A DNA stretch of 18,073 nucleotides from a virus (taxonomy: Duplodnaviria > Heunggongvirae > Uroviricota > Caudoviricetes), in the IMG/VR virus record IMGVR_UViG_2526164650_000010, one strand, 5' to 3'. Within the stretch, counting starts at the first letter, position 1. Every line of letters starts with the position of its first letter. The translations under genes and the position numbers were made by a program. Positions 13,446-15,996 of this stretch are shown here, piece after piece. Under the pieces are notes generated by a model. That model was given only the letters and a program-made list of their open reading frames with translations. It did not search any database and was not told the origin of the DNA.

Positions 13446-13520
13446 GCGGGCATCGTATAATGGCTATTACCTCAGCCTTCCAAGCTGATGATGCGGGTTC
13501 GATTCCCGCTGCCCGCTCCA
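13446..13520 (+). tRNA. tRNA-Gly (anticodon UCC)
   Basis: GCGGGCATCGTATAATGGCTATTACCTCAGCCTTCCAAGCTGATGATGCGGGTTCGATTCCCGCTGCCCGCTCCA; resembles E. coli glyT from memory. Confidence 0.85.
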
Positions 13521-13634
13521 TGACCTTTCTTAAAGTACTCCAACCTACTGAATCCTAAGGGATACGGCTTTAAGCCTCCTTGCAGAGTTACTTACTGTAA
13601 CCCACTGTGTAACCCTCTCAGGGCATGCAGACAT

Positions 13635-15239
13635 ATGATTCAGCTATCCAGTAGTCACAAACTTCCAGCAGTCTACTATCTCTACCAGCGTAACGGCGTC
13701 TACTACTTCCGTCTTAGGGTCAGACAATCAAACAATGATAGAATGACCTCAATATCATTACGGACCAAGGATAGACGCACCGCTATGGCTTACTCAAGGC
13801 ACATAAAGGCAGCACTCAAGGCAATACACGCAGACAGACCCAACGCTACCTATGAGGAAATGAGGGAACACCTTAAGGACATCGCTGAGTGTGAACTGTC
13901 TATGGGCCGTTCAGATCTCTTTGAGCCTGACATGAGGGATATCTACCGGGACCAATACGGAGAACTTGGTGAGAGCCTTACCGATGCTCTGGCTAGTGAG
14001 CCGCTAAGCATTGACCAGCATCGTTACATCAATGAGGCCCTGAAGGTGCTAAAAGCCTGTATGAGGCGTATCGAAGCGGGAGACAGTCAGCTTCTGATAG
14101 ATTACGTCGATCTTTTTAATGATATTGATAGGCAAGATAACCAAGCAGACTCTGTGTCCCTATCTGTTAATGCTCCAGAAGTAAAACCAGAAGTTACGCC
14201 TAGCATTACCATAGCGAGCCTCTTTGAGCAATACGAAGCGGAGAACTATCAGAACTGGAAGCCTGCAACCTTAAGGGAAAACAAGGCGTCACACGCTGCG
14301 TTAATCGAAATATTCGACCATCTGGGTCTCAATGCAGACGCTAACAGGGCTGACATGCTTAGGGTCCGTGATGTGCTCCAGCAGTTACCTAGGAACCGTA
14401 AGCAGCGCTTCAAGGATGTCCCACTTGCTGACCTGTTGAGCCGTGAAGATAAGACAGATTGTCTGGATGTCGTTACCATCAACAACAAGTATCTTATTAA
14501 GATGGCTGCTGTCTTTAGGTGGGCTGTGCGCAATGACTTGATTAAAAAGAACATGACTGAGGGTCTGGAGCTTAAAGTCCCTCAGCGTAAAGCCTCAGGG
14601 GCCCGTAACGCCTTCTCTACGGAGCAGGTGGGGCAACTACTGGTCGCAGCTAAGGCATACTCTCAGAAGACCTCTGGTAAGCCGTATCATTATTATGTTA
14701 CCGCCTTGGCTGCTATCACTGGGGCGAGACTCAATGAAATAGCCCAACTACAGGTCAAAGACGTCAGGACCACTGAGGCGGGAACCGTTTATATTCATAT
14801 CAATGAAGACGATAGTAGTCTACCCGGTAAGAGCATCAAGAACGCTCATAGTGACCGCTGTGTGCCTCTGGTCGATGGGGCCTATGGTTTTATATTGGCT
14901 GACTTTATGGCGCTTGTAGAGACCCGTAGAGGCGCTGACGGTGATGACGCTATGGTGTTCGATGGTCTGCGTCTCATGAAGAACGGTTACGGTGAGCAGG
15001 TGAGTAAATGGTTTAATCGGACGTTGTTGCCTAAAGTCCTCGTAGACCGTAGCGGCTTAGCGTTTCACTCGTTTAGACATACAGTTGCGGCCCAGTTAAA
15101 ACAACATGGGGTCGAGTTGGCGTATGCACAGGCGATCATGGGGCATAGTTCAGGGTCTATTACGTACGACCGTTATGCTAAAGAGGTCGAGGTTGATAGG
15201 CTGGTCAATGTGATGGCTGATGTTTATAAGGAGACCTAG
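13635..15239 (+). CDS. Tyrosine site-specific recombinase (phage-type integrase), 534 aa
   Basis: C-terminal catalytic signature: R (TGARLNEIAQL), H-x-x-R (HSFRHTVA), H and Y nucleophile (MGHSSGSITYDRYAK); N-terminal arm-type start (YQRNGVYYFRLRV); begins 114 bp after tRNA-Gly. Confidence 0.9.
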   Translation: MIQLSSSHKLPAVYYLYQRNGVYYFRLRVRQSNNDRMTSISLRTKDRRTAMAYSRHIKAALKAIHADRPNATYEEMREHLKDIAECELSMGRSDLFEPDMRDIYRDQYGELGESLTDALASEPLSIDQHRYINEALKVLKACMRRIEAGDSQLLIDYVDLFNDIDRQDNQADSVSLSVNAPEVKPEVTPSITIASLFEQYEAENYQNWKPATLRENKASHAALIEIFDHLGLNADANRADMLRVRDVLQQLPRNRKQRFKDVPLADLLSREDKTDCLDVVTINNKYLIKMAAVFRWAVRNDLIKKNMTEGLELKVPQRKASGARNAFSTEQVGQLLVAAKAYSQKTSGKPYHYYVTALAAITGARLNEIAQLQVKDVRTTEAGTVYIHINEDDSSLPGKSIKNAHSDRCVPLVDGAYGFILADFMALVETRRGADGDDAMVFDGLRLMKNGYGEQVSKWFNRTLLPKVLVDRSGLAFHSFRHTVAAQLKQHGVELAYAQAIMGHSSGSITYDRYAKEVEVDRLVNVMADVYKET

Positions 15240-15327
15240 AGGAGACCATAGTCTAGGATGACACTTACTACAGACCTGTGTGGTCATGTTTTTGACTCAT
15301 AGTTTTCTCTACTTGTCAAGGGATAAT

Positions 15328-15350
15328 TAATACGACTCACTATAGGGAGA
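15328..15350 (+). promoter_or_regulatory. Phage T7 RNA polymerase promoter, perfect 23/23 match to class III consensus
   Basis: TAATACGACTCACTATAGGGAGA; predicted +1 G at 15345. Confidence 0.75.
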
Positions 15351-15448
15351 AGGGACACAAAAAGTTTTCTCTTCTAGGATGACACTTACTACAGACCTGT
15401 GCGGTCATGTTTTTGACTCATAGTTTTCTCTGCTTGTCAAGGGGTAAT

Positions 15449-15471
15449 TAATGCGACTCACTATAGGGAGA
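15449..15471 (+). promoter_or_regulatory. Phage T7 RNA polymerase promoter, 22/23 match (A to G at -13)
   Basis: TAATGCGACTCACTATAGGGAGA; predicted +1 G at 15466. Confidence 0.65.
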
Positions 15472-15568
15472 AGGGACACAAAAAGTTTTCTCTTCTAGGA
15501 TGACACTTACTACAGACCTGTGTGGTCATGTTTTTGACTCATGGTTTTCTCTACTTGTCAAGGATAAT

Positions 15569-15591
15569 TAATACGACTCACTATAGGGAGA
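15569..15591 (+). promoter_or_regulatory. Phage T7 RNA polymerase promoter, perfect 23/23 match
   Basis: TAATACGACTCACTATAGGGAGA; predicted +1 G at 15586. Confidence 0.75.
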
Positions 15592-15780
15592 AGGGACACA
15601 AAAAGTTTTCTCTTCTAGGACAACTAACCGTAACTTATCGCATCCTTTCAGGGGCGGGATGACCAATTACAGACACCAAGCGTTCTACTTAAAGTGAATG
15701 CTTCCTGTGTGCTCTGGGTCAGTCGATAAGTGAATAGCAATAAGACACAATCATCTTAATTATGGTCTCTAGTCCCTACA

Positions 15781-15960
15781 GGGGCTTAACTTAAAGTTAA
15801 CTTAAAGACACAATTAAAGATTAACTTATAGTATTACTTAAAGTTAACTTAAAGACACAATTAGAGATTAACTTTAAGTATTAAATAAAAGATTTAATTA
15901 AAGACCAATTAAAGATTAACTCTAAGGGAATACCTTAAGGGGTGATGATATTTATAATAA
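15781..15960. repeat. AT-rich iteron region (ACTTAAAG / ATTAAAGA motifs; two about 42-bp direct repeats 47 bp apart plus a degenerate third)
   Basis: ACTTAAAGTTAACTTAAAGACACAATTA at 15789..15816 and again at 15836..15863; related ATTAAAGACCAATTAAAGATTAAC at 15891..15920; no ORF. Confidence 0.7.
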
Positions 15961-15996
15961 TCAATCACCAAACCTATAGGTCTTCTCTTGAAGTGG

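Follow-up and report, generated by a model that had tools for sequence, protein, structure and literature searches.

T7 islands were reportedly described as a set of 12, each 4-13 kb long, in nine enteropathogens; they have two or three promoters in tandem and no polymerase gene, a tyrosine integrase encoded upstream, direct repeats of 17-24 bp and cargo unlike known structural proteins. They are an already known class, named in 2006 (Chen & Schneider, NAR; the title is confirmed in reference lists), whose common features are tandem promoters, the absence of a polymerase gene, a tyrosine integrase and short terminal repeats. Here we analyze an 18,073-nucleotide stretch of DNA from IMG/VR virus record IMGVR_UViG_2526164650_000010 (the whole stretch is referred to below as the window) and identify in it the left half of a T7 island truncated by insertion sequences (ISs), which retains the left attachment site (attL), the integrase gene, a T7 promoter array, an origin-like region and a scrap of a rha gene. 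The window element is a truncated member of the class and shows no difference in kind from the islands described in 2006: it has at least two tandem promoters with a tyrosine integrase upstream, no polymerase gene and an enterobacterial host. Attachment (att) repeats at both ends were not found; attL alone is present because attR has been lost by IS-mediated deletion, which indicates truncation and not a different family. Co-oriented phage-related genes downstream of the promoters are represented in the window only by the 82-bp rha fragment. This locus was probably among those analyzed in 2006, as a 2020 review cites the 2006 paper in its discussion of the Shigella sit island, which adjoins the locus in related contigs. 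In the literature searched, the title phrase of the 2006 paper appears in five papers, with nothing later than 2020 and nothing experimental on the islands among them, and there was nothing relevant on a characterized satellite of T7 or its relatives.

Several families of phage satellites invite comparison with T7 islands. Phage-inducible chromosomal minimalist islands (PICMIs), which carry genes for a small terminase, alpA and fis, are not known to contain phage-polymerase promoters or a capsid gene. The cf-PICIs (e.g. EcCI2, PDB 9gyi) are about 10-15 kb long, possess alpA, a primase-replicase and a full head module made up of capsid protein, portal, protease or scaffold, connectors and small terminase, and take only tails from their temperate helpers; T7 islands have no such head module, but only a protein with a predicted HK97 fold and the helical protein DUF6971. 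PICMIs from Vibrionaceae have been described, in the accessible part of the source, as satellites of virulent phages and as "minimalist" islands (bioRxiv 10.1101/2023.07.18.549517); both they and T7 islands (4-6.6 kb) are small, but the host clades differ. P4-like satellites of P2, according to the accessible parts of two reports (PMC9519451; PMC13586616), resemble T7 islands in having an integrase at a tRNA gene, cargo tied to late transcription of the helper, and carriage of defence genes. However, no homologues of P4 genes are found in T7 islands, a T7 island would have as helper a virulent phage that brings a polymerase of its own, and activation of the island would proceed by promoter identity and not by a transcriptional activator.

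The integrase encoded in the window (13635-15239, plus strand) is an intact protein of 534 aa with an ATG start, whose open reading frame (ORF) begins 114 bp after tRNA-Gly. Residues 329-516 match the Pfam family Phage_integrase (PF00589, E 2e-17), DUF6538 is found at the N-terminus, and inspection of the sequence locates the catalytic motifs TGARLNE (R365), HSFRH (H478, R481), GH (H504) and Y511/Y514. The ORF, the Pfam match and the motifs agree with an earlier note on this DNA, made from the sequence alone, which had described a 534-aa tyrosine recombinase with complete catalytic residues 114 bp past the tRNA gene. An NCBI entry that represents a cluster of 769 member sequences, "site-specific integrase [Shigella flexneri]", has the same sequence (100% identity). 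As that note had also stated, the visible 2.5 kb holds no structural, replication or regulatory genes besides the integrase, which is the sole ORF within 13521-15988. The promoter array had been placed less than 15 bp past the integrase stop codon, and the measured distance is 12 bp, with the stop codon ending at 15239 and the array starting at 15252. The array (15252-15620, plus strand) comprises 3.1 tandem copies of a 121-bp unit with 95% matches, each unit with one T7 class III-type promoter (15328-15350, 15449-15471 and 15569-15591, plus strand), so that three promoters lie within 264 bp (15328-15591), all directed rightward, away from the integrase. The sequence TAATACGACTCACTATAGGGAGA occurs exactly at 15328 and 15569 and with one mismatch at 15449 (0 matches in 200 shuffles), and BLAST finds promoter matches of 26-27 nt that are identical to phi6.5, phi10, phi13 and phiOR of T7. 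There is no nucleotide similarity to T7 outside the promoters and a 20-nt motif discussed below; wider similarity of the element to phage DNA is limited to a 59-bp match in the promoter region to Salmonella phage Vi06.

Comparison with other genomes revealed many related loci. At least 80% of the integrase-plus-array segment is present in 39 complete E. coli genomes, and a related integrase in 381 of 5,426 (~7%); all E. coli matches are chromosomal, those examined lie at glyU next to actS, and a search of plasmids returned one partial integrase match. In all six E. coli loci that we examined, the tRNA 3' end recurs as a direct repeat at the far boundary of the element, with the full 23-bp sequence TTCGATTCCCTTCGCCCGCTCCA in five of them and 18 bp in the locus of strain 21AR0133 (L001); these elements measure 4.0-4.3 kb in the short form and are larger where an IS or RAZR (see below) is present. 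The att repeats of intact relatives overall are 17-30 bp long. Another 20 loci come from other species, including members of Klebsiella, Pectobacterium, Citrobacter, Buttiauxella, Morganella, Proteus, Rouxiella, Lonsdalea and Edaphovirga, with integrases that are 65-87% identical; a tRNA-Gly(CCC) gene was called just upstream of the integrase in 14 of them. In metagenomes, a search with a 24-nt motif from the left arm of the island gave 44 loci, 35 of which are next to glyU, while most others are located behind a partial att site of another element. The integrase and the promoter array therefore co-occur, bounded by tRNA-Gly 3'-end repeats, in E. coli, in other species and in metagenome contigs, and are parts of one mobile element. 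This bears out the earlier claim that the integrase is physically linked to the T7 promoters as one element, and the comparative data exclude that the promoters are an unrelated neighbour of an ordinary island.

Intact islands are integrative elements of Enterobacterales, inserted by the tyrosine integrase into the 3' end of tRNA-Gly; they measure 4.0-6.6 kb, or up to 7.6 kb with IS insertions, the short form accounting for 4.0-4.5 kb. The nearest relative of the window element, L001, is 94% identical to it and about 6.1 kb long without its IS5; it contains the integrase, two promoters, a Rha-family regulator, an ORF of ~65 aa, IS5, DUF6971, a 373-aa protein and attR, in this order. The description of the window element as "minimal" in the earlier note thus reflects truncation, since L001 has four more genes. 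Genes for RNA polymerase, replication or tail proteins were not found in any intact copy (judged by cargo families, none longer than ~400 aa).

The decay of the window copy can be followed in detail. IS911 (15989-17237, minus strand; 99% identical to annotated IS911) is inserted in the island, and about 440 bp of adjacent island sequence are lost. It is followed by an 82-bp fragment of rha, the first cargo gene (17238-17319, plus strand), which encodes ...EIAELTGKEHRNVLRDIRKMLEELNA and is 92.7% identical to positions 23111-23192 of L001, within an annotated Rha family gene. This fragment is interrupted by IS1 (17320-18073, plus strand; Pfam DDE_Tnp_IS1 E 3e-71, together with the IS1 end sequence), which runs off the window end. 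Of two related Shigella copies, one (L030) has no IS911, retains the 440 bp and has one promoter unit, and the other (L033) carries IS911 in reverse orientation but has not suffered the deletion. Past the IS elements of the window, the related Shigella contigs continue with a further IS, tail-fibre genes and a sit-type ABC transporter. Since these prophage genes directly adjoin the ISs, the cargo and attR have been deleted; IS911, IS1 and IS-mediated deletion account for their removal from the window copy. A second copy of the tRNA-Gly 3' end is absent from the window even with up to 4 mismatches allowed, the only one being at 13498-13520, as the earlier note had found. Its suggestion that the far attachment site is lost, or lies beyond the IS911 truncation, holds with regard to the loss; the island is not ended by IS911, as the rha scrap on the other side demonstrates. 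What remains is probably inert apart from the intact integrase and the three T7 promoters, a dead remnant in which these three strong promoters would still fire if T7 RNA polymerase were provided.

The left end of the island lies at a tRNA-Gly(UCC) gene (13446-13520, plus strand; anticodon tcc), which was identified by ARAGORN and Rfam and is borne by a prophage. attL corresponds to the 3' end of this gene (13498-13520, plus strand; TTCGATTCCCGCTGCCCGCTCCA) and shares 20 of 23 positions with the usual glyU core. The island sequence starts right after ...CCCGCTCCA, with the same junction as in the islands at E. coli glyU. A related phage, vB_EcoS-683R6, provides the empty site: it contains Q, tRNA-Thr, tRNA-Gly(TCC) and lysis genes without any insertion. 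The empty site, together with the glyU-like core and junction, indicates that the element was inserted at the 3' end of the prophage-borne tRNA-Gly, and we regard the tRNA-Gly(UCC) gene of this defective lambdoid prophage as a secondary insertion site of the island. The comparative check that the earlier note had called for has thus yielded both intact att-bounded copies and an empty site. The adjacent left arm of the island (13521-13634, plus strand; TGACCTTTCTTAAAG...CTGAATCCTAAGGGATACGGCTTTAAGCC) is conserved in islands of many genera and probably holds arm sites of the integrase; the right arm of intact copies has a motif related to the left-arm motif, in opposite orientation.

T7-group promoters are located downstream of the integrase in all 20 loci from other species, and their specificity region varies with the host. 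The island of K. pneumoniae ATCC 13883, which is 6.4 kb long, has two K11-type promoters, AATTAGGGCACACTATAGGGAGA, which match the annotated phiOL of K11 at 22 of 23 positions, plus one exact T7 promoter; the Proteus promoters are AATTAACCCACACTATAGGGAGA, those of Pectobacterium AATTAACTATCACTATTGGGAGA, and Citrobacter has mixed variants. The promoter specificity co-varies with the local T7-group phages, and this is the strongest argument for the promoters being functional targets of the polymerase of an infecting phage. We strongly infer that the island depends on RNA polymerase supplied by a phage. In K. pneumoniae ATCC 13883 at least two specificities are found within 120 bp (L008, 10265-10841), and a fourth promoter variant, AATTAGGTAGCACTATAGGGAGA, is located ~450 bp downstream; judged by these sequences, the island could respond to several phage polymerases. 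Otherwise near-identical islands differ in their number of ~120-bp promoter units, with a single unit in Shigella L030 (3590-3700), three in the window and one or two in E. coli, hence the array is unstable, or possibly selected for dosage. A degenerate promoter-like sequence, CAATACGACTTACTAATAGGAGA, with 5 mismatches to T7, was observed in E. coli FT130 (L002, 22770-22810) and likewise in three other loci (L004-L006), where it comes after three tandem AATCAATACG repeats, ~220 bp upstream of the KilA-N gene.

According to ORF clustering, the long form of the island consists of the integrase, a DUF4145 protein, the promoters, a Rha, Ant or KilA-N protein, a protein of ~65 aa, DUF6971, and a protein family that we call FAM2 (330-400 aa). 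The Rha, Ant and KilA-N DNA-binding proteins are interchangeable among islands. The short form has no capsid gene and contains KilA-N plus a protein of ~105 aa with a hydrophobic, membrane-like sequence. The DUF4145 protein, encoded between the integrase and the promoters, was identified by PADLOC as PD-T7-4 (E 8e-99). According to the original report, PD-T7-4 came out of an experimental selection for genes that protect against T7, and it "often overlaps an integrase gene" (PMC9519451). It is the same protein as RAZR, which combines a zinc finger with a HEPN RNase, aborts infection on assembling around the portal ring of T7 or T3, and works from its own promoter, as stated in the accessible part of a later report (PMC13017515). 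A search by terms found no mention of an island around RAZR or of native T7 promoters in the accessible text of either report; in that of PMC13017515 an integrase is not mentioned, and the two occurrences of "T7 promoter" belong to methods text. RAZR/PD-T7-4 (Vassallo 2022, PMC9519451; Nature 2026, PMC13017515) is present beside the integrase in most of the surveyed islands, including nearly all those that carry FAM2, whereas it is absent from the window lineage, where the integrase stop codon is followed by the promoter array.

FAM2 is the largest cargo protein. By sequence it matched nothing in Pfam or in searches of the PDB, and its comparison with T7 gp10 by hhalign was negative as well. 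A structural model (AlphaFold2, from 37 homologues; pLDDT 70.5, pTM 0.67) predicts an HK97 capsid fold, and its structural matches include Ccm of SaPIbov5. DUF6971, encoded just upstream of FAM2, is composed mostly of long charged helices, and a scaffold role for it is plausible by inference. Its sole structural relative is its own crystal structure, PDB 5EUR, which was determined for the "hypothetical protein" SF216 of S. flexneri 5a M90T and which shares 96% of 80 aligned residues with the DUF6971 protein that we modelled (P0170), itself 99% identical to the product of the L001 gene at 25340-25750. The match between 5EUR and the island protein indicates that the island is less reduced in some S. 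flexneri strains than in the window. Complete FAM2 islands without ISs (n about 22) are 6.13-6.61 kb long, and this tight size holds despite identities of only 72-88% between their integrases and that of the window and 28-60% between their FAM2 proteins and the reference.

The promoter array is followed by a transcribed leader and an AT-rich region (15621-15988, plus strand), with CTTAAAG/ATTAAAG repeats at 15786-15921 that recur with periods of 11, 23 and 47 bp; the GC fraction is 0.35 at 15501-16000. This arrangement resembles the origins of T7, in which AT-rich DNA lies downstream of a T7 promoter. The best local alignment of the AT-rich region outside the promoters is to T7 414-495, just past phiOL (score 38-48, with a shuffle maximum of 25-30). 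Pentamers recognized by T7 primase occur at 22-29 per kb in 15240-15990 and in the repeats around the island promoters, against 2.4-5.3 expected, a 5-9 fold enrichment that is inflated by tandem repetition. Directly past the integrase stop codon of E. coli FT130 (L002, 21815-21975), GATGACCATAGGC is repeated about 12 times in tandem, and other islands have different short repeats in the same place (TGTGGTCCTA, CTAGGGTCTC, CTATGGCCCT), most of them with T7 primase pentamers on one strand.

The 20-nt motif mentioned above, CTCTGTGTCCCTATCTGTTA (14150-14169, plus strand), lies inside the integrase ORF and is identical to T7 149-168 (BLAST E 8e-5). It consists of the final 12 nt of the terminal repeat of T7, which are also those of the right end of the genome (...CTCTGTGTCCCT, position 39937), plus ATCTGTT, the sequence that comes after the 160-bp terminal repeat and that is the class II pause signal at the T7 concatemer junction. 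The ends of the terminal repeats of T3, K11 and phiYeO3-12 have the common consensus tgtgtccct|ATCTGTT. Within the integrase the motif occupies a hypervariable, indel-rich linker and is nevertheless kept in most members of the family: the codons TCC, CTA and TCT are retained in 84-95% of non-redundant integrases, compared to a mean of 65% for codons with at least four-fold degeneracy, and rank 19th, 12th and 5th among 98 six-fold degenerate columns, CTA being a rare codon. More distant integrases have CTATCTGTA in place of the motif. The orientation of the motif is that of the promoters, which means that the DNA would have to be circular or concatemeric for a polymerase started at these promoters to arrive at it.

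The earlier note, which had offered a satellite-like hitchhiker of a T7-like helper as one option, described a real and non-random feature and came close to its nature. On balance, we lean towards regarding T7 islands as satellites that are activated by the phage polymerase and that also carry defence, through a mechanism that we infer as follows. The island would remain silent until infection by a T7-type phage that supplies its RNA polymerase, whereupon the promoters would fire rightward into the cargo, i.e. Rha/Ant/KilA-N, the ~65-aa protein, DUF6971 and the ~375-aa protein with the predicted HK97 fold. The promoters, together with the AT-rich DNA rich in primase sites, would serve as a T7-type origin, from which the replisome of the helper would copy the island, and the motif in the integrase gene, which reproduces the terminal-repeat end with its pause signal, would be a cutting signal for the helper's maturation machinery. 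The capsid protein of the island would build a small shell for a genome of ~6.3 kb, while RAZR/PD-T7-4 would, in most islands, abort the T7 infection. The most specific version of this scheme we put forward as a tentative possibility: T7 islands would be a satellite family, overlooked for 20 years, that exploits virulent T7-group phages yet encodes a capsid of its own. The promoters would be both sensor and origin, the motif the cut site and DUF6971 the scaffold of a small HK97-fold shell matched to a genome of 6.1-6.6 kb, and RAZR, so far studied as a stand-alone defence gene, would be a native core gene acting on the helper portal.

Several observations weigh against the satellite interpretation. 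The window copy lacks all cargo and says nothing on its own activity. The capsid assignment of FAM2 comes from a medium-confidence model with TM-scores of 0.25-0.40 and no sequence or profile match. The islands contain no portal, terminase, excisionase or replication gene, and for portal, terminase, alpA and primase-replicase there is no Pfam or PHROGs match in the relatives. The trigger of RAZR is the portal, which a satellite would itself need. The Klebsiella and Pectobacterium islands show no enrichment in primase pentamers, to which the effect of tandem repetition on the count given above has to be added. In the integrated state neither the integrase nor the junction-like motif lies in the direction in which the promoters fire, and a mimic of the T7 left end (TCTCAYAGT) is absent from all islands, so that a full T7-type packaging substrate is not apparent. 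Moreover, the public data that we searched contain no excised, circular, concatemeric or packaged form: the attP junction pattern is absent from IMG/VR and from the metagenome collection, none of the 44 metagenome loci is excised, Logan contigs of island size represent integrated copies whose assembly stops at the att repeats, and the integrase matches in IMG/VR are only prophage calls from isolate genomes with no sign of packaging. We note that the absence of mobilized forms neither supports nor excludes an excision that depends on infection.

Part of this evidence fits an island devoted only to defence, in which the promoters would sense infection and switch on toxic or interfering cargo (Rha/KilA-N/Ant, the small membrane protein of the short form, and the capsid-like protein as a poison of helper capsid assembly), the motif and the origin would be decoys for the terminase and the replisome of the phage, and the element would never be packaged but spread by other means. 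A proven abortive-infection gene against T7 and T3, RAZR/PD-T7-4, is indeed present in most islands, the short-form islands have no capsid gene, neither excised or packaged forms nor a mimic of the T7 left end were found, and the structural matches of FAM2 include Ccm of SaPIbov5, which is homologous to capsid proteins and works by interference. On the other hand, RAZR is located upstream of the promoters and has a promoter of its own, and hence does not need them, and travel in particles is a better fit for the conserved protein with the predicted HK97 fold, the helical DUF6971, the size of 6.1-6.6 kb and integrases that are 65-97% identical across genera. We consider a purely defensive island rather unlikely. 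A remnant of an unusual temperate T7-like phage, which the earlier note had offered as an option, might be suspected from the T7-type promoters, the origin-like DNA, the terminal-repeat-end motif and the capsid-fold gene of the relatives. Nonetheless, the dozens of att-bounded copies of 4.0-6.6 kb have one small gene set without RNA polymerase, DNA polymerase, primase, portal, terminase or tail genes, nucleotide similarity to T7 does not extend beyond the promoters and the 20-nt motif, and FAM2 is unlike T7 gp10 in sequence; such an origin is very improbable, and the intact copies without polymerase, replication and tail genes effectively refute it. Finally, an artefact, be it vector contamination or chance proximity to the integrase of an ordinary island, comes to mind because the exact 23-nt T7 consensus is the one used in laboratory vectors, but its probability is negligible, as the same array, with natural variation in unit number and sequence, occupies the same place in Shigella, in metagenomes and in complete E. 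coli genomes, of which about 40 are independent instances, other genera carry promoter types of other phages there, and no vector-like sequence flanks the array in the window.

Thus, we favour the satellite interpretation of T7 islands, to which, as far as can be told, our analysis adds beyond the 2006 description the capsid-fold cargo, the link to RAZR, the junction-like motif and the insertion into a prophage-borne tRNA-Gly; in the accessible literature on the islands we found neither an HK97-fold cargo, nor RAZR as a core gene, nor a junction motif in the integrase. The T7-group phages are classic virulent phages that are widely used in therapy cocktails and in biotechnology, and T7 islands occur in E. 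coli, Shigella, Klebsiella, Yersinia, Serratia and Pectobacterium. If the islands are mobilized by T7-type phages, they would represent a route of gene transfer driven by strictly lytic phages; they would also explain the location and the spread of RAZR/PD-T7-4 and provide a natural sensor of infection based on promoter identity.

The remainder of the window concerns the source prophage. Positions 1-13200 comprise the early and Q regions of a Rac/Stx-like lambdoid prophage with many IS elements, which is of the E. coli/Shigella lambdoid type and itself a remnant, and we assign the DNA of the window to Shigella flexneri. Downstream of the prophage Q gene, ARAGORN detects four tightly packed tRNA genes with a spacing of 1-3 bp (13210-13520), in the order Met-cat, Arg-tct, Thr-tgt and Gly-tcc; an Rfam scan of 13000-16100 returned these four tRNAs and nothing else. 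The corresponding cluster of vB_EcoS-683R6 has only the Thr and Gly genes, and E. coli FDAARGOS_944 matches the window up to 13445 but has no Gly gene. At least five IS copies are present in the 18 kb, namely two of one IS3-family element, two of IS1 and one of IS911 (436-1700, 8631-9386, 11250-12500, 15989-17237 and 17320-18073), a load in keeping with the way in which ISs typically drive genome decay in Shigella.

The usual site, glyU, often holds integrative elements in tandem, as in L001 (27365-29429) and in the metagenome loci L048, L049, L059, L069, L070, L074 and L075; a T7 island may there be located behind the partial att site of another element or precede an element with an unrelated integrase. 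A second integrase lineage, 73% identical, was found in E. coli ECMA0423 (L020) and S. flexneri SFBU1023 (L021) beside a degenerate tRNA-like sequence, in which ARAGORN calls no tRNA in the former and a tRNA with a 4-nt anticodon in the latter. Hence, S. flexneri may hold two lineages of T7 islands.

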